From Escherichia phage Paul: a stretch of 64,000 nt of DNA. The notes beneath the pieces were generated by a model, which searched no databases, was not told the DNA's origin, and saw nothing but the letters and a program-made list of their open reading frames with translations. The stretch's first letter is position 1. Each line of letters opens with the position of its first letter. The position numbers were made by a program, and so were the translations under genes. The stretch lies in sequence record NC_070992.1; one strand, written 5' to 3'. Shown piece by piece: positions 1 to 9,986 of this stretch.

Positions 1-563
1 AGCCTTTCTCTCACTCTCTAAAGGGGTACTAAATAAACGGGTAGGTAATGTATTGGGTAGTATACACGGGGAAAGAATAACGGGGAGTAGGCACGGGGAA
101 AGGTTGAACGTTGAAAAGGAAGGTAAAGGCATTGCCAATAACCCTTTTTTAAATGAGGACTCCCCCCTTTTAGGGAACACGCGGGAAGCGGCTAGCCCCA
201 CTCGGTCAAATCAGAATTTTAAACTCTTATATATAAGGTTAAGAGAGAACTTAATGAATCTAATTAAAGTATTCAGACGGATGAAGTGTAAGCACAATTA
301 CTATCTTCTTCGTAAAGCTTACGGGGATGAAAGAATACACGGTTTGTACCTATCAACGTGGAGGTGTAGGGAATGTGGTAAGTTGAGATTCAGTACGTGG
401 GTGGATAGGCCTTAACGTGACATGGCCTTTATGACATAGCCTTAACATGAAGCCCCCTTTAAACCTCTTCCCTTTATCAGCGTACACGGGTTGTTGGTAT
501 GACGTGGCCTTTACGGGTTAGATATGCCTAGCCCTTTATACTCTTATTCAGAGGAGAAGAATT

Positions 564-818
564 ATGAATTTAGTATTAGACTTTTTATCAGAGATGGTGC
601 CTCGGTTCAGAACAGAGACATACGCTTTCATAATCAACAGTGACTCTGAAGATGGGATGGAAGCTACATGCTTAGGTCGTCTTGTTGATTTAGATGATGA
701 TGAAGATTTCGATATTACAATTGACGTGAGTAGCTTAGGTTGGCTCTTCTTCAGAGCATTCCGCACTTACAAAGTAGAAACATACAAAGATTATAGCAAG
801 GGAGAGACAGATGAATAA
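564..818 (+). CDS. hypothetical small acidic protein (84 aa)
   Basis: SD GAGGAG about 7 nt upstream of ATG; D/E-rich; no recognisable catalytic motif. Confidence 0.4.
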   Translation: MNLVLDFLSEMVPRFRTETYAFIINSDSEDGMEATCLGRLVDLDDDEDFDITIDVSSLGWLFFRAFRTYKVETYKDYSKGETDE

Positions 819-1380
819 TTTAATCAAAGCGATGGACCTTAACGAGTATGATTCACAGCTATGTCGCTCTGGTTGTAGCTTACAACATTTAGAAACTATG
901 GGAAACATCTCAGGACTGGCTGTACAAGATTTGTATAGTGGAAGTATTCTTAAACCAAATATTACGGAGAACAAAAACATGTTAGATTTGATTCATACTA
1001 CTCGCCCTAATTCTAAAACTAAATCAGCACCATCTACTCTGGAAGTAGTTGAATACGAATCCACTAAACATGATCACCTCCCTGACTATGCTCGTGCAAT
1101 GATTGAGATGATTGAAGAAGCTGAATATGAAATGCTCCATGATTACATTACCTCCAAAGATGAATGGCATCGTGATGTTCGAATCGAAGAGGATGGTACA
1201 GAAACAATTACGTGGATTCACAAGAGTGAGCTAGTAGACGACGCACTGCGAGACTACGAAAAATTTTTGGTCGACGGCTCTATTCTTTTAGAGGAAGAGA
1301 AGGGTGTAGAACTTCCGTGGGAGGGTGAGATAGTTACTTTAGGTAAGATGTTTAACCTGTCCGTTGGTGATTGTAAGTAA
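811..1380 (+). CDS. hypothetical protein (189 aa)
   Basis: start overlaps upstream stop (coupling); followed by hairpin terminator; no motif recognised. Confidence 0.4.
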   Translation: MNNLIKAMDLNEYDSQLCRSGCSLQHLETMGNISGLAVQDLYSGSILKPNITENKNMLDLIHTTRPNSKTKSAPSTLEVVEYESTKHDHLPDYARAMIEMIEEAEYEMLHDYITSKDEWHRDVRIEEDGTETITWIHKSELVDDALRDYEKFLVDGSILLEEEKGVELPWEGEIVTLGKMFNLSVGDCK

Positions 1381-1385
1381 TGTTT

Positions 1386-1410
1386 GCCTCCGTTGGGAGG
1401 CTTTTTGTGT
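1386..1410 (+). terminator. intrinsic terminator
   Basis: GCCTCC-GTTG-GGAGGC stem-loop followed by TTTTTGTGTTG. Confidence 0.6.
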
Positions 1411-1436
1411 TGTTGATAATGTAGAAGGAGTATAAA

Positions 1437-1910
1437 ATGTTTGGAGAAAACGGAGAACTCACGCCTGCACAGGTAGCTGAGATTACAGGAAGATTACCCG
1501 GAGTAACGGAAGAACTTGAAGGCCGTGGTATGAACCCAAGCAATGGGAAGTTTCAAAAGGGAAATAAATTCGGACGACCCAAAGGTAGTAGAGGTAAACT
1601 GACACAATTAATGTTGGACCGTGTTGCTGCAAGTCATTTGTCTCCTGATGAAGTGTTAATTCAAATTTACGAAGATCCTAATATTCCACCTGATCTTAGA
1701 TTCAAGGCTGCATCAAAAGTTGCAGATCTGGTATATCCTAAGGCGGCCTCTGTTGAAGTTAAGATTGAGGAAGAGAATGTAATCAACGAAGAATCATTGA
1801 ATGCACAAATCAAGGACTTCTTGACTGGAGCACTTGGTATCGACGTTATGCCTCCAGAAGAAGACAACTCTGAGGGCGCTGAAAAGGGGGAGGAAGCGGA
1901 CGAGAGTTAA
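1437..1910 (+). CDS. putative terminase small subunit / DNA-binding protein (157 aa)
   Basis: positional only: immediately upstream of terminase large subunit; SD AAGGAG; basic N-terminal half, acidic C-terminus. Confidence 0.3.
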   Translation: MFGENGELTPAQVAEITGRLPGVTEELEGRGMNPSNGKFQKGNKFGRPKGSRGKLTQLMLDRVAASHLSPDEVLIQIYEDPNIPPDLRFKAASKVADLVYPKAASVEVKIEEENVINEESLNAQIKDFLTGALGIDVMPPEEDNSEGAEKGEEADES

Positions 1911-2026
1911 GTAAAGGAAGCTGTATGGATGCTGGGTTTTAAGTTAACCAGATATGCAGCGAATAAGAGAGGGGAGGTTCTTTGACGAAGGGACTTTCCC
2001 TTTTCTATTTTTAAACTGGAGGAAGT

Positions 2027-3568
2027 ATGTCATTAGATAAACAAATTTATGAAGCTCTAACTGGTAACAATCTTAGTGTAGATGAAAAGAAAGCACTATT
2101 GAATATGTTGAAAGAGCGTGACCAATGGAGGAAGTATAATAGGATTTTGTCTTTCAAGGCGTATGACTTCCAAAAGAAATTTTATGCAGCAGGATTGAAG
2201 CATCGCTTTAGATTCTTGTGTGCAGCGAACCGTGTTGGTAAATCTTACAGCGAGGCATACGAGTTTGCTTGTCATGTCACAGGTCGCTATCCAACTTGGT
2301 GGACAGGGTATAAATTTAAAAGACCTATCTTAGCATGGGCAGTTGGTATTACAGGGGATTCCACAAGGAAGGTATTGCAAAAGGAATTGTTTGGTACACC
2401 TATCGGAAAGGATACAAACTTATTGGGGACAGGTGTCATTCCTCGTGATGCTATCGTCATTGATACGATAGAACGAGATGGTAACAAACTTCAAATCGTA
2501 CAAATCAAACATCAAAATGAGAGAGGAGAGTTTGACGGTTTAAGTACGTTAGAATTCCGTTCAACCCAACAGGGTGAACACACATTGATGGGTGCAACAG
2601 TTGACTACATTTGGTTAGACGAAGAAGATCCATACGAGTCTATGGCTATATTCGCACAGTGCGTCACACGTACACTCACAACTAAAGGTCTAGTTACAAT
2701 TACAGCTACACCAGAGAACGGTTTAACTGAACTGGTGGATAAATTTATGAAAGGTGAAGGGGATGAGAACACAGGTTCTCTATATTTCCAGAATGCTTCT
2801 TGGTGGGATGCCCATGCAGACCTAGGTGGACATATCACTGACCAAGATATAAAAGATATGACTGAAGGTATTCCAGCGTGGCAGTTAGAGATGCGTTCAA
2901 AAGGTATGCCATTGTTAGGAAGTGGTTTGATTTATGATGTATCGGATGACACAATTAAATGTGAACCATTCGAAATTCCTGATACGTGGAAACGTGTCTG
3001 TGCAATTGATATTGGTATTGATCACCCAACTGCTGCTGTTTGGACAGCTTACGACGCAAACACGGATACTATCTATGTTTACGACTCATATAAAGAAGGT
3101 GGCTTTACTCCAGTGTATCATGCTCCAGCTATTAATGGTCGTGGTCAGTGGATTCCTGTCATCCTACCGCACGATGCGGACAATACTGAGAAAGGTAGTG
3201 GTTCATCTGTTGCTCAATTCTATAAGAATGCAGGAGTTAACGTACAGAGTGAGACCTTCTACAACAAAATTGGAATGGATGGTAAAAAGAACTTCTTTGT
3301 AGAACCGGGAATCACAGATATCCGAGAAAGAATGATGAGTGGACGCTTTAAAGTCTTTAACACAGCCGCTAACGCTAAGCTATTCGAAGAGAAAGCTAGA
3401 TATCACCGTAAGGTTGGTAAGATTATTAAAGAACATGATGACTTAATGGATGCAATGCGCTATTCAGCGTGCTCTGTTACACATCGTGGTCGCTCTAAGC
3501 ATGACGTTAGCTACGGAAGTGCTTCTCTGTATGAGGCAAACGTAAGCAGATGGAATCAGAGCTACTAA
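2027..3568 (+). CDS. terL: terminase large subunit
   Basis: Walker-A-like CAANRVGKS, Walker B VDYIWLDEE, RNase-H-like nuclease motifs VCAIDIGIDH and HDDLMDAMRY. Confidence 0.85.
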   Translation: MSLDKQIYEALTGNNLSVDEKKALLNMLKERDQWRKYNRILSFKAYDFQKKFYAAGLKHRFRFLCAANRVGKSYSEAYEFACHVTGRYPTWWTGYKFKRPILAWAVGITGDSTRKVLQKELFGTPIGKDTNLLGTGVIPRDAIVIDTIERDGNKLQIVQIKHQNERGEFDGLSTLEFRSTQQGEHTLMGATVDYIWLDEEDPYESMAIFAQCVTRTLTTKGLVTITATPENGLTELVDKFMKGEGDENTGSLYFQNASWWDAHADLGGHITDQDIKDMTEGIPAWQLEMRSKGMPLLGSGLIYDVSDDTIKCEPFEIPDTWKRVCAIDIGIDHPTAAVWTAYDANTDTIYVYDSYKEGGFTPVYHAPAINGRGQWIPVILPHDADNTEKGSGSSVAQFYKNAGVNVQSETFYNKIGMDGKKNFFVEPGITDIRERMMSGRFKVFNTAANAKLFEEKARYHRKVGKIIKEHDDLMDAMRYSACSVTHRGRSKHDVSYGSASLYEANVSRWNQSY

Positions 3569-3629: not shown

Positions 3630-5873
3630 ATGGCTAAGCAAAAATATAGTGAAGAGGTGTTGGACGAGTTACGTGTTGACCTTCAACGTCGTTTTAATTA
3701 CGCTCAAGGTTACGTGGACATGGCTGTTAAGGGCTATGCTCGTGAAGCTTGGGAATATTTCTATGGTAACTTACCTGCACCAGTAACTGCTGGCAGCTCT
3801 AGTTGGGTAGATCGTACTGTTTGGGAATCTGTTAACGGTACATTGCAAGATATTATTAACGTATTCTGTTCTGGTGACGAAGCAGTTACTTTCGTAGCTG
3901 ACAACCAACAGGATTCTGATGCTGCTGATGTAGCAACTAAATTAGTCAACCAAATTCTTCTGCGTGATAATCCGGGATACAATATTATCTCTTCTGCTGC
4001 ACAAGAATGTCTGGTTACTCGTAACTCTTTTATCAAATATTATTGGGATGAGCACACTTCTACTCAAACTGAAGAAGCTGAAGGTGTACCACCGGAAGCA
4101 TTGGCTGCATATGTTCAGGGATTAGAAGCTGGTGGACTCAAGAATCTGGAAGTCTTCACTGAAGAAAATGAAGATGGTACAGTTGATGTTAAAGTTACTT
4201 ACGAACAAACTGTTAAACGTGTGAAAGTTGAATATGTTCCTTCAGAGCAAATCTTTGTTGATGAACATGCTACCTCTTTTGCAGATGCACAATATTTCTG
4301 TCATCGTGTACGTCGCTCTAAAGAAGATCTGGTTGCTATGGGCTTCCCTAAAGATGAGATTGAAGCATTCAACGACTGGACAGACACGATGGATACCACT
4401 CAATCTACAGTTGCTTGGTCTCGTACTGACTGGCGTCAGGACATTGATGCTGACATTGGTACAGATACTGAAGATATCGCTTCTATGGTTTGGGTTTATG
4501 AGCACTACATCCGTACTGGTGTTCTAGATAAGAATAAAGAGTCTAAACTCTATCAGGTTATTCAAGCTGGTGAGCATATCCTTCACACTGAAGAAGTAAC
4601 TCATATTCCGTTTGTAACCTTCTGTCCGTATCCGATTCCGGGTTCCTTCTATGGTCAATCAGTCTATGACATTACGAAAGATATTCAGGATTTACGTACC
4701 GCGTTAGTTCGTGGTTATATTGATAACGTCAACAATGCTAACTATGGTCGATACAAAGCTCTTGTTGGTGCATACGATCGTCGCTCTCTGCTTGATAACC
4801 GTCCCGGTGGAGTGGTTGAAATGGAACGTCAGGACGCTATTGACCTGTTCCCATACCATAACCTACCTCAAGGTATTGACGGCCTCTTAGGCATGTCTGA
4901 GGAGCTTAAAGAGACACGTACCGGTGTAACTAAACTTGGCATGGGTATCAACCCTGATGTGTTTAAGAATGATAACGCTTATGCAACCGTAGGCTTGATG
5001 ATGAATGCTGCACAGAACCGTCTCCGTATGGTGTGTCGTAACATTGCTCACAATGGTATGGTTGAATTGATGCGTGGTATTTACAGCCTTATCAGAGAAA
5101 ATGGTGAAGTTCCTATTGAGGTACAAACTCCTCGTGGTATGGTTCAGGTTAATCCGAAACAATTACCAGCTCGTCATAATCTTCAAGTTGTTGTAGCTAT
5201 CTCTCCTAACGAGAAAGCAGAACGTGCACAGAAACTGATTAGTTTGAAACAGCTGATTGCAGCAGATGCACAGTTAGCACCTCTCTTTGGTTTGGAGCAA
5301 GACCGTTACATGACTGCACAGATCTTTGAGTTGATGGGTATTAAGGACACTCATAAGTACTTACTGCCTCTGGAACAGTATCAGCCTCCTGAGCCGTCTC
5401 CGATGGAAATCCTCCAGCTCGAGATGACTAAAGCACAGGTTGAGAACGTACAGGCTTCTTCTCAGAAGATGATTGCTGATGCATTCGACCAGCGTGAACG
5501 TACTACATTCGAACAGCAGAAAGCTGCGGATGAATTAAGTCTGCGTCAGGAAGAGTTGCAGTTCAAGCAAGAAAATGCAGCAGATGCTATGACTCTGGAA
5601 AACCGTAAAGAAGATAACAATGCAACTCTGGAACAAGCTAAGCACAAGTTAGCTCTTATGCAACAGCAGGTCCGTCAGTATGAGTCTGTACTGAAAGAAT
5701 TGCAGATGGTTATGGAACATCAGGTTGACCAAGAGAAGATTGTTCAGCAGTCTCGTGTTCAGGATAAAACTTTGGAACTCCAAAAGAAAGAAGCTAATGT
5801 AACTAAGAAAGAGCAACAAACTTCTCTCAAAGATTCACGGATTCCAGGCAAACGTCTTGGAAGTAAAAAGTAA
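3630..5873 (+). CDS. portal protein (747 aa)
   Basis: position directly after terminase; size; long C-terminal Q/E/K-rich coiled-coil tail as in P22-type portals. Confidence 0.7.
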   Translation: MAKQKYSEEVLDELRVDLQRRFNYAQGYVDMAVKGYAREAWEYFYGNLPAPVTAGSSSWVDRTVWESVNGTLQDIINVFCSGDEAVTFVADNQQDSDAADVATKLVNQILLRDNPGYNIISSAAQECLVTRNSFIKYYWDEHTSTQTEEAEGVPPEALAAYVQGLEAGGLKNLEVFTEENEDGTVDVKVTYEQTVKRVKVEYVPSEQIFVDEHATSFADAQYFCHRVRRSKEDLVAMGFPKDEIEAFNDWTDTMDTTQSTVAWSRTDWRQDIDADIGTDTEDIASMVWVYEHYIRTGVLDKNKESKLYQVIQAGEHILHTEEVTHIPFVTFCPYPIPGSFYGQSVYDITKDIQDLRTALVRGYIDNVNNANYGRYKALVGAYDRRSLLDNRPGGVVEMERQDAIDLFPYHNLPQGIDGLLGMSEELKETRTGVTKLGMGINPDVFKNDNAYATVGLMMNAAQNRLRMVCRNIAHNGMVELMRGIYSLIRENGEVPIEVQTPRGMVQVNPKQLPARHNLQVVVAISPNEKAERAQKLISLKQLIAADAQLAPLFGLEQDRYMTAQIFELMGIKDTHKYLLPLEQYQPPEPSPMEILQLEMTKAQVENVQASSQKMIADAFDQRERTTFEQQKAADELSLRQEELQFKQENAADAMTLENRKEDNNATLEQAKHKLALMQQQVRQYESVLKELQMVMEHQVDQEKIVQQSRVQDKTLELQKKEANVTKKEQQTSLKDSRIPGKRLGSKK

Positions 5874-7204: not shown

Positions 7205-7245
7205 TCGACAAATTAATTATTTAATAGTATAGGAGCTAACATAAC

Positions 7246-8307
7246 ATGGCTAATCCAACTTTATTTGTATCGTATGACCAGAATGGTAAAAAACTTTCTT
7301 TTGCTAACTGGATTTCTGTTCTGTCCCCTCAGGATACTCCGTTCGTATCTATGACCGGTAAAGAGTCTATCAACCAGACTATCTTTAGCTGGCAGACCGA
7401 TGCATTGGCAAGCGTTGACGCTAATAACGCACACGTTGAAGGTTCTCGTGCGGTTGATGGTGAAATGCAACCTACCGTAATCAAATCCAACGTTACTCAG
7501 ATTCTGCGTAAGGTTGTTAAAGTTTCTGATACCGCTAACACCACCGCTAACTACGGTCGTGGTCGTGAACTGATGTATCAGCTGGAGAAGAAAGGTAAAG
7601 AGATCAAGCGTGACCTCGAGAAAATCCTTCTGTCCGGTCAGGCTCGTACCGACGTTCTGGCTGACCAATACCTGACTAACTCTGCAACTGATCCTGCAAC
7701 TGTTGGTCTGAACGACACTCATGCAGCTCGTAAGACTGGTGCATTCCAGTTCCTGTGTGCTCACGGTGGTCTTGCTGGTGCTGTCGTTGACAAAACCAAG
7801 AATGGTCCTGCTGACCCGGATACTGGTGCAGTAACTGTTAAAGTTGCACAGAATGCTTCTAACCCGACCACTAACATTGGTTTTGACGAAGCTGATATCT
7901 TTGATATGACTCTGCAACTGTATACCGCTGGTTCTGAAGCAGATATCATCATGATTAACCCGGCTCATGCTAAGATCTTCGCTGGCCTGCAAGAAAATAC
8001 TCAGGGTTCACGTAAGCGTATCTTTGAGAACACCAAGCAGTTCATCTACGAAGTTAACAGCATCACTGACCCTCTGGGCCAGAGCTACAAAATCATCGTT
8101 AACCGTTGGATGCCTACCGATGCAGTTTACTTCTTCCGTAGCGCTGACTGGACTCAGATGGTTCTGCGTGCTCCGAAACGTACTGAACTGGCTAAAGATG
8201 GTTCTTACGAGAAGTGGATGATTGAAATGGAAGTTGGTCTGCGTCACCGCAACCCGTATGCTTCCGGCGTTCTGTTCACTGCTGCGGGAAAGGTAGCGGC
8301 GGCGTAA
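7246..8307 (+). CDS. major capsid protein (353 aa)
   Basis: position after scaffold; SD TAGGAG; strongly biased codon usage (CGT/GGT/CTG) typical of highly expressed virion genes. Confidence 0.75.
   Translation: MANPTLFVSYDQNGKKLSFANWISVLSPQDTPFVSMTGKESINQTIFSWQTDALASVDANNAHVEGSRAVDGEMQPTVIKSNVTQILRKVVKVSDTANTTANYGRGRELMYQLEKKGKEIKRDLEKILLSGQARTDVLADQYLTNSATDPATVGLNDTHAARKTGAFQFLCAHGGLAGAVVDKTKNGPADPDTGAVTVKVAQNASNPTTNIGFDEADIFDMTLQLYTAGSEADIIMINPAHAKIFAGLQENTQGSRKRIFENTKQFIYEVNSITDPLGQSYKIIVNRWMPTDAVYFFRSADWTQMVLRAPKRTELAKDGSYEKWMIEMEVGLRHRNPYASGVLFTAAGKVAAA
8286..8292 (+). other. candidate -1 programmed ribosomal frameshift slippery heptamer G_GGA_AAG
   Basis: X_XXY_YYZ heptamer in capsid zero frame 5 codons before its stop; -1 frame is open from 8226 and encodes GSGG linker then Ig domain; hairpin TAACAGT/ACTGTTA at 8305-8328. 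Confidence 0.5.
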
Positions 8308-8390
8308 CAGTAGAGTCCGTAACTGTTAGTCCTTCGTCGGTTGCAAGCCTTCCGACGGGGGCTACTCAGCAGTTTACAGCTACAGCAGAA

Positions 8391-9929
8391 ATGAGTGACG
8401 GCTCCACAAGCACAACCGGATTTAGTTGGTCCGTTGAGGGCGGTGGGGCTGTTTCTGTTTCTGGGCTATATACTGCACCGAGTGCGTCGCAAGAAACCCC
8501 AGCAACTATTACGGCAACAAAGTCATCCAAGAAAGGAACGGCTACTGTTAATTCTATCTATGAACCAGCGACCATTGTATCAAAAGGTCCTATTACTGGT
8601 AAGATTGGTGGCAGCACTACAGCTTTTACCACAATGTTTACTGCAACCAACTCAGCGTTCTCTGACTACGAGTTTGAAATCACTCCTCCGTCAGCAGGGT
8701 CTTTTAATCTGTCTGGTGTGTTTGGTTTAGATGACAATGCATCTGGAACAGTGACTGTAAAAGCAACACATAAAACTCAGACCTCCGTTACAGCTACTAC
8801 CTCCTTTACTGGAGTTGCTGCTAAAGCTGGAATTGTGACTAAAGGTCCGATCACTACTGCTCTTGTTGGTGGTGATTCAGTAGCTTTCAATACAATGTTT
8901 ACTGCAACCAACTCTTCAGCAGCTGATTATGAAGTTACTGTAACTCCTCCAGCTAATGGATCTTTCGTTGGTAGTTCTGTAGTTCTTTCAGCTAATGCGT
9001 CAGGAAGCACTGTTGTTAAAGCTGTTCACAAAACACAACCTAGTGCAACAGAAACTTGTACATTGTCCAACGTATCACCTAAAGCATCTTTGACAGCTAA
9101 GACAGTAACTGGTAAAGTTGGTGGAGACACTGTTACGTTTGCTGCTTTATTCACAGCAACTAACTCCTCTGCCTCCAATTACATTTTCGTAGCCAACCCT
9201 CCTGGCATGGCAACTTCTATTGATGCAACTACGGGTCTTGTCACTCTAGCAGCTAACGCTACTGGTGATGTTACTATCAAAGCTACTCACAAAACCCAAA
9301 CCTCGGTTACTGCTACAGGGACAATCAGTGGTGTAGTTCCTAAAGCTACTATCACAGGTAAATCTCTTACCGGTAAAGTTGGTGGTGATGTGATTCCTTT
9401 TGCTGATATGTTCACTAGTAACAAGCCAGCATCGGAATTTACCTATGTGTTAACTCCAACTGATGATGTAGGAGAAATCAACACTACTACAGGTGCACTA
9501 ACCCTCTTGGATGCTCCTACAGATGAAGTTATGAATGTGAAAGCTACTCATAAGACTCAAACATCTGTAACGGCAACTGCTACAATTACAGCTACTCCGA
9601 AATTTAAAGGCCTTGTTGCTTCTAATGTTTCTAACACTGTAGTTGTGGGTGCTCCAGAAAACCCACTTGCTACTGATACTATCACGATCACTGACTCGGC
9701 TCAACCGGGTGTTGTTCGGTTTGATGGTGTACCTCAGGGTGCTCTTACCGGCAAACTAATGTATGATGTAGAAGGTACTGATGCAGGTTTGATGGAATTG
9801 TCTCTTTCTGGTCAGGTATTGACAATCACGTTGTCAGCTCCTATTACCAGCGAAGATACTAAAGTAACAATGAGAACTGACCCAGCTTCTACGATATTCC
9901 GTACTTATATTGTTAAATCTGGTGCATAA
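8391..9929 (+). CDS. Ig-like (BIG2-type) repeat protein, probably the C-terminal extension of the capsid via -1 frameshift
   Basis: four to five tandem modules each containing VKATHKTQTSVTAT; reading frame stays open upstream of the ATG back to 8226, overlapping the capsid 3' end. Confidence 0.6.
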   Translation: MSDGSTSTTGFSWSVEGGGAVSVSGLYTAPSASQETPATITATKSSKKGTATVNSIYEPATIVSKGPITGKIGGSTTAFTTMFTATNSAFSDYEFEITPPSAGSFNLSGVFGLDDNASGTVTVKATHKTQTSVTATTSFTGVAAKAGIVTKGPITTALVGGDSVAFNTMFTATNSSAADYEVTVTPPANGSFVGSSVVLSANASGSTVVKAVHKTQPSATETCTLSNVSPKASLTAKTVTGKVGGDTVTFAALFTATNSSASNYIFVANPPGMATSIDATTGLVTLAANATGDVTIKATHKTQTSVTATGTISGVVPKATITGKSLTGKVGGDVIPFADMFTSNKPASEFTYVLTPTDDVGEINTTTGALTLLDAPTDEVMNVKATHKTQTSVTATATITATPKFKGLVASNVSNTVVVGAPENPLATDTITITDSAQPGVVRFDGVPQGALTGKLMYDVEGTDAGLMELSLSGQVLTITLSAPITSEDTKVTMRTDPASTIFRTYIVKSGA

Positions 9930-9935
9930 GAATAA

Positions 9936-9960
9936 AGCCGCCTTCGGGTGGCTTTTCTTG
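9936..9960 (+). terminator. intrinsic terminator
   Basis: AGCCGCC-TTCG-GGTGGCT hairpin followed by TTTCTTGTTTT. Confidence 0.6.
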
Positions 9961-9986
9961 TTTTAAGACCTATACAAGCTAGTGTG

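Follow-up and report, generated by a model that had tools for sequence, protein, structure and literature searches.

At the 3′ end of the major capsid gene of Escherichia phage Paul, a second reading frame, encoding Ig-like repeats, is already open before the first one closes, which raises the question of whether the two frames specify two proteins or a single protein made in two forms. The window analysed here, i.e., the whole stretch of 64,000 nucleotides, corresponds to the left 64 kb of a phiEco32-like E. coli podophage (Kuravirus, Gordonclarkvirinae), with its genes arranged in the order terminase, portal, scaffold, capsid, adaptor, and fibres. As argued below, the overlap very probably reflects a programmed −1 ribosomal frameshift in the major capsid gene of Kuravirus (phiEco32-like) phages, from which a minor capsid-Ig isoform of 894 aa would be made. 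Any claim to novelty has to be set aside, since this frameshift is already known: it is annotated for Paul and has been published for relatives within the genus. The value of the result accordingly lies in the quality of annotation, and little in discovery.

Reading frames, slip site and conservation

The short, zero-frame form of the major capsid protein (353 aa, 38.7 kDa) is encoded on the plus strand at 7246..8307 and is identical to QEG08105.1 of phage Paul. It is an HK97-fold protein of the SU10_MCP family, as seen from its matches to Pfam PF17236 (E=5.7e-77, 259.5 bits for a cut-off of 24.1) and, over residues 1-352, to the SU10 major head protein in the PDB (7z45, E=1.4e-231). A Shine-Dalgarno (SD) sequence, AGGAG, is found on the plus strand at 7231..7235, 10 nt 5′ of the ATG at 7246, and is the sole ribosome entry site for both capsid isoforms. 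Capsid codons start at positions that are 1 mod 3, and the ATG at 8391, from which the Ig-repeat open reading frame (ORF) can be annotated, is at 0 mod 3, i.e., in the −1 frame, which stays open between 8226 and 9929; both frames are accordingly open on the plus strand over 27 codons at the 3′ end of the capsid gene (8226..8307). The zero frame ends there with ACT GCT GCG GGA AAG GTA GCG GCG GCG TAA, the TAA stop codon being at 8305-8307.

Within this overlap lies the slippery heptamer G_GGA_AAG (8286..8292, plus strand), in the X_XXY_YYZ register, with GGA and AAG as zero-frame codons of the capsid gene. It is the sole canonical heptamer detected by a scan of the 3′-terminal 120 nt of the capsid gene, which covers the whole of the 8226-8307 overlap. 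GGGAAAG as such is not enriched in the window (6 occurrences versus 6.95 expected), and the heptamer thus matters only for its frame and its position. A shift at this site opens an extension of 545 aa plus a stop codon (8292..9929, plus strand), and the long isoform, join(7246..8292, 8292..9929), is exactly 894 aa long, for a mass of 93.0 kDa. Its sequence across the shift is ...FTAAGK|GSGGVTVESVTV..., translation through the heptamer giving ...FTAAGKGSGGVTVESVTV..., and the predicted junction peptide of the fusion is ...LFTAAGKGSGGVTVESVTVSPSSVASLPTGATQQFTATAEMSDGSTSTTGFSWSVEGGGAVSVSGLYTAPSASQETPATITATK. The first-pass annotation had already described an Ig ORF open upstream to 8226 in the −1 frame with an overlap of 27 codons, and all of these coordinates were recovered when the frames were recomputed. 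The same is true of the zero-frame heptamer at 8286-8292, found in register on the two capsid codons, and of the predicted passage from FTAAGK to a Gly/Ser linker and then an Ig domain, which translation and Pfam resolve into a GSGG linker followed by Big_2; the estimate of about 894 aa turned out to be exact.

In the proposed mechanism, ribosomes would initiate at ATG 7246 and the majority of them would stop at TAA 8305-8307, yielding the 353-aa capsid protein. A minority would slip by −1 while the P site is occupied by GGA and the A site by AAG: the Gly tRNA would move back onto GGG and the Lys tRNA onto AAA, a step that we infer from the established tandem-slippage model, and the −1 frame would then be read up to 9929. 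The resulting 894-aa isoform would consist of the full capsid fold (residues 1-349), the GSGG linker, the Big_2 domain, four repeats of about 86 aa, and a C-terminal domain of 110 aa.

For comparison, 37 related loci were gathered from phages in GenBank, from IMG/VR, and from metagenomes. The Kuravirus-like loci among them share 81-100% capsid identity and comprise 16 distinct sequences around the site. In all of these Kuravirus-like loci, GGGAAAG is invariant, in frame, and 15-21 nt before the stop codon; the ORF that follows it extends over 172-545 aa in the −1 frame, versus 2-7 aa in the +1 frame. It is this conservation of the heptamer and of the arrangement of frames that raises the observation above chance. 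A −1 extension of Ig type is found as well in relatives whose capsid identity is 49-66%, where it is reached via other slip sites: G_GUA_AAG, followed 6 nt further by a GC-rich tetraloop hairpin, C_CCA_AAA, or A_AAA_AAG. GGGAAAG is found again in Cronobacter phage vB_CsaP_009 (57% capsid identity), and a few relatives lack the extension and have instead a terminator directly 3′ of the capsid stop codon. Given that −1 extensions are present in close as well as distant relatives, the frameshift is, judging from these sequences, an old and recurrent feature of the SU10_MCP-type capsid lineage.

Possible alternative origins of the Ig-like product

The main competing explanation is that two genes are present, with a 512-aa Ig-repeat protein initiated separately at ATG 8391 and acting as a free, capsid-binding decoration protein. 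The majority of related records in GenBank, like the cryo-EM paper on SU10, do present the Ig part as a gene of its own, with an arbitrary internal start: CDSs for an "Ig domain containing protein" are annotated in Bas89, NJ01, SR02, LAMP, and others, and the SU10 structure paper names gp10 as a possible minor capsid protein (PMC9509320). Several features of the locus argue against this. While the capsid ATG is preceded by AGGAG, no SD sequence is present before ATG 8391, and the −1 frame contains no ATG, GTG, or TTG from 8226 up to that codon. ATG 8391 is located about 29 residues inside the Big_2 domain, whose detection needs residues encoded upstream of this codon; a protein started at 8391 would hence have a truncated first domain, and its translation indeed gives no Pfam match. 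In addition, the 83 nt that separate the capsid stop codon from ATG 8391 encode a conserved protein sequence when read in the −1 frame. The first start codon available in this frame also differs among relatives, its position ranging between 154 nt upstream and 86 nt downstream of the capsid stop codon, which explains why the starts of the "Ig protein" are inconsistent in GenBank. Lastly, exact look-up in a collection of 15 billion proteins did not return the 512-aa product of ATG 8391, but did return the 894-aa fusion. Taken as a separate gene, the Ig part therefore seems very unlikely. The proposal of the first-pass annotation, that a −1 frameshift fuses the capsid protein to the Ig extension, is by contrast backed by the lack of a start codon and SD sequence, the split Big_2 domain, conservation, and the deposited fusion.

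Other routes to the same proteins have been considered. Stuttering of the RNA polymerase, rather than slippage of the ribosome, would make the same −1 product, and sequence alone does not formally separate the two. Transcriptional slippage as known in bacteria nonetheless requires runs of about 7 or more A or T, and the only homopolymers available here are AAA and GGG, three bases each; moreover, the site is an exact, correctly framed match to the X_XXY_YYZ rule for ribosomal slippage, making a transcriptional origin of the additional isoform extremely improbable. Another concern is that a single long capsid-Ig ORF might have been interrupted by an indel, arising from a sequencing or assembly error or from a recent pseudogenising mutation, as an error of one base would look alike in a single genome. 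However, the frame arrangement, the heptamer, and the zero-frame stop codon recur in 16 distinct sequences, from both isolates and metagenomes, and the solved SU10 capsid is made of the 352-aa short form, so that an artefact of this kind has next to no probability and appears effectively refuted. Read-through of the capsid stop codon was also discarded, as a zero-frame TAG is found one codon past the TAA. A programmed ribosomal frameshift is thus the explanation retained in what follows.

RNA structures around the slip site

Two hairpins follow the heptamer, and each is a candidate for stimulating the shift. The first one (hairpin 1, 8305..8328, plus strand) has a 7-bp stem, TAACAGT at 8305-8311 with ACTGTTA at 8322-8328, closed by a 10-nt loop, and its 5′ arm overlaps the capsid stop codon. 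The first-pass annotation had placed a 7-bp hairpin 13 nt downstream of the slip site: this stem is real and does begin at the 13th nucleotide after the heptamer, leaving a spacer of 12 nt, but it is no more stable than shuffled sequence, with z-scores of −0.27 to −0.98 and 72/200 and 30/200 shuffles folding as well. The spacer is also longer than the 5-9 nt usual for stimulators, and is reduced to 9 nt in relatives carrying a 3-nt deletion. Its 14 stem positions, four of which are third-codon positions, are nonetheless invariant in the 16 sequences (with the exception of the basal pair in LAMP), while the loop is variable; this invariance leaves no possibility for covariation, but an invariant stem around a variable loop is suggestive.

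The second hairpin (hairpin 2, 8329..8362, plus strand) starts 36 nt past the heptamer and is formed by a core (8335-8340 with 8352-8357) and a lower stem (8329-8333 with 8358-8362). The region 8328-8364 folds at −17.7 kcal/mol (z = −2.91), and 0/200 shuffles are as stable. Compensatory changes are seen at two pairs, one being UA in 8 sequences, GC in 6, and AU in 2, and the other GC in 10 and UG in 5: the synonymous wobble position of a Ser codon (TCG/TCA/TCT) covaries with a Pro/Leu/Gln/Glu codon located 14 nt downstream. This covariation corresponds to few independent events, at least two. A role for hairpin 2 in frameshifting is possible on these grounds, and stimulation of the shift by hairpin 1, hairpin 2, or both is only suggested by the data.

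Alternative structures involving the heptamer itself were not retained. A longer version of hairpin 1, lengthened in the direction of the heptamer by pairing columns 41-48 with columns 74-80 of alignment A1, has 89.7% of paired cells, with no compensatory changes and with one pair broken in 13 of the 16 sequences. Similarly, the stem-loop that Mirzaei et al. drew for SU10, in which CTGCTGC and GCGGCGG enclose the heptamer, is 92% paired but displays one-sided changes and no covariation, and would be melted by a ribosome sitting on the slip site. No SD-like motif was seen upstream of the heptamer, and an Rfam scan of 8150-8500 returned no match up to E=10.

An adjacent pair of hairpins downstream of the slip site is the one thing that was not found described in the literature. 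It is tempting to imagine that the pair is a genus-specific element setting the ratio of short to long isoform and that, separately, the presence of 1-4 repeat copies tunes the length of head fibres, but this remains a tentative and rather unlikely idea.

The Ig-like extension and its counterparts in known systems

The first domain of the extension is a Big_2 Ig-like domain (Pfam PF02368; 8304..8561, plus strand), within which ATG 8391 falls. Analysed in isolation, the 8304-8561 segment scores 29.7 bits over residues 3-80 (E=6.4e-7, cut-off 22.8), and the domain is still recognized in the whole −1 product from 8292, at residues 7-84 and with 23.4 bits. It is followed by four tandem repeats of about 86 aa (8562..9596, plus strand; individually 8562-8816, 8817-9074, 9075-9335, and 9336-9596), which are 38-55% identical to each other (alignment A2) and share the invariant motif KA.HKTQ.S.T.T. 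These repeats are probably Ig-like as well: they match PHROG 13745, "Ig domain containing protein", in 4 stretches (E=7e-105), and the best of the four, repeat 3, reaches a sub-threshold 18.4 bits with Big_2. The 110-aa C-terminal domain (9597..9926, plus strand) has no sequence match in Pfam or the PDB. A PDB sequence search with the 545-aa extension gave no match either, and a profile of the four repeats gave non-significant PDB matches only, the best of which, 6qvk (E=0.35), falls on the Big_2 portion of the capsid protein of phi29. AlphaFold2 models were all-beta and of low confidence, both for the whole extension without an alignment (pLDDT 39.9) and for one repeat with the four-repeat alignment (pLDDT 58.8). 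The top Foldseek matches in the PDB were Ig-like proteins (T5 pb6, intimin, and invasin), all of them non-significant (E>0.6). Among relatives, the number of repeat copies ranges from 1 to 4, which agrees with the differences in size that the YF01 authors had noted (PMC9965538), and the presence of the C-terminal domain varies independently. On the prolate head, a chain of Ig-like domains may serve in adhesion to glycans or mucus, or in stabilisation of the capsid.

Just past the stop codon of the extension is an intrinsic terminator-like hairpin with a T-run (9934..9965, plus strand), made of a 9-bp stem with 5 GC pairs and the tail TCTTGTTTTA. It is the strongest such site in the stretch scanned, and its location right behind the extension counts in favour of the fusion reading; weaker ones, with a 7-bp stem and 3 GC pairs, exist elsewhere, e.g., at 8430-8447 inside the extension. 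With 4 terminator-like sites versus 2.8 expected, the scanned stretch displays no overall enrichment.

Exact-sequence look-up identified the 894-aa fusion as QEG08106.1 / YP_010674326.1, "major head protein [Escherichia phage Paul]". Both forms are residue-for-residue identical to the Paul isoforms (genome MN045231), junction included, as expected from what is the same locus. The frameshift is not discussed in the announcement of the Paul genome and is present in its annotation only (PMC6787329). In SU10, slippage on GGGAAAG was reported to fuse the head protein to an Ig-like domain, "as in phiEco32", and forms of 38.5 and 55.4 kDa were detected by mass spectrometry (Mirzaei et al., 2014, PMC4281155). 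The YF01 paper describes the heptamer and a −1 isoform of 892 aa, the nearest in size to the 894 aa of Paul, and sets this frameshift beside T3/T7 gene 10 and lambda G/GT (PMC9965538); in the YF01 record, the capsid CDS is joined from two pieces. For Privateer, the minor capsid protein was found in virions and GGGAAAG was given as the slip site, and the Privateer paper states that phiEco32 and SU10 had also been observed to make the frameshift product (PMC7881722). In contrast, the cryo-EM study of SU10 has no Ig density and regards the Ig part as a distinct protein, gp10 (PMC9509320); the YF01 authors put the missing density down to a premature stop codon in the −1 frame that, in their view, is peculiar to SU10 (PMC9965538). 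This claim conflicts with the earlier mass spectrometry of SU10, and the experimental record in the genus is thus not clean. By analogy with the mass spectrometry of SU10, phiEco32, and Privateer, we infer that the long form of Paul would be present in capsids as a surface decoration of low occupancy.

The closest counterparts of Paul are SU10, phiEco32, and YF01, which have the same capsid family, a GGGAAAG near the stop codon, and a −1 fusion to an Ig-like domain. Differences lie in the extension and the spacer: extensions of the phiEco32, SU10, and NJ01 types span about 175 aa (Big_2 and one repeat), with a spacer 3 nt shorter than that of Paul, whereas YF01 has, like Paul, four repeats and the C-terminal domain.

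Beyond this group, gene 10A/10B of T7 and T3 provides another podophage case, in which a −1 shift near the end of the major capsid gene yields a minor, C-terminally extended isoform, as in Paul. As cited in the YF01 and Privateer papers, the T3 gene 10 extension is an Ig-like domain and slippage in T7 and T3 is of about 10% (PMC9965538, PMC7881722). The capsid family of T7 and T3 nevertheless differs from the SU10_MCP family of Paul. Their slip sites are also different, and they have a far shorter extension (about 50 aa for T7). Lambda G/GT is likewise a case of −1 tandem slippage in a late gene of an E. coli phage, for which the YF01 paper gives a slippage of about 3.5% (PMC9965538). Unlike in Paul, where the product is a structural decoration, it encodes a tail assembly chaperone that is outside the virion. 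Its heptamer, reportedly described by Levin and colleagues in 1993, is said to be the identical G_GGA_AAG.

With respect to the domain itself, Fraser and colleagues reportedly described Ig-like domains on phage structural proteins in 2006, and on capsid proteins such domains are sometimes attached through frameshifts. phi29 gp8, with its C-terminal Big_2, and T4 Hoc both expose Ig-like domains at the capsid surface, as predicted for Paul. Both are nonetheless unlike the Paul fusion, as phi29 carries its Ig domain on every subunit and without a frameshift, and Hoc is a separate protein.

Slip sites and the domains behind them

Homologous capsid genes among the related loci gathered from IMG/VR, metagenomes and GenBank phages (L numbers) are joined to differing Ig-type domains via differing slip sites. 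Locus L027 carries C_CCA_AAA and an extension of 211 aa, L014 carries A_AAA_AAG and an extension of 40 aa, and in Cronobacter phage vB_CsaP_009 (L033) GGGAAAG lies 6 nt 5' of the stop codon and precedes an extension of 168 aa. The 88-aa extension of L012/L035 (Aeromonas phage LAh_6) is similar to an I-set Ig domain. As both slip sites and Ig-type domains vary on homologous capsid genes, these sequences suggest repeated domain swapping behind one conserved frameshift.

In six loci with about 65% capsid identity (L009-L011, L024, L025 and L028) the -1 Big_2 extension is retained, with a length of 167-169 aa, and no canonical heptamer was found around their capsid stop (e.g., L009 3900-3990). G_GUA_AAG (A_AAG tetramer) is the sole plausible candidate there for the slip site. 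A strong hairpin, GCGYCC-CUAC-GGGCGU, is located 6 nt 3' of it, and a C-to-U change within this hairpin retains the pair as G-U.

Two further GGGAAAG copies, 27 nt apart, are found close to the left genome end of the window (69-75 and 96-102). Both fall within a TTG-initiated ORF (53..415, 120 aa) and are probably part of a putative terminal-repeat or early-promoter region.

Relatives without the extension and capsid paralogues

The frameshift extension is absent from L013/L026, Aeromonas phage BUCT695 (L034) and L036, where an intrinsic terminator immediately follows the capsid stop. In BUCT695, a separate downstream ORF of 410 aa, annotated as 'major capsid protein', takes the place of the extension. 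Aeromonas phage APT65 (L036) encodes three 'major head protein' paralogues in tandem (569-3427), of about 310 aa each; a terminator-like hairpin lies behind the last of them, which lacks a -1 extension.

Of separate note, the capsid region of Escherichia phage myPSH2311 (L032, 2501-3448) gives a gapped tblastn match at 81%, and its capsid annotation covers no more than a 132-aa fragment (3050-3448); sequencing or assembly errors in this record are likely.

Repeat number and the region downstream

The number of ~86-aa repeats within the capsid extension was compared between the window (8562-9596) and relatives L001, L002, L015-L017, L029 and L030: one copy is present in the NJ01/phiEco32 type, two in L017, three in Bas89, SR02 and L029, and four in the window, YF01, L015 and L016. 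The L015 extension is missing the 110-aa C-terminal domain.

In Escherichia phage MLP3 (L037), an inserted HNH homing endonuclease gene (4182-4694) separates the Ig extension from the adaptor gene; neither the window nor the other relatives have one at this position.

In the window, the stop of the extension is followed, 5 nt further 3', by a strong hairpin of terminator type, whose 9-bp stem includes 5 GC pairs, and a T-run (9934-9965). In T7, the T-phi terminator sits after gene 10, and the window hairpin is reminiscent of it.
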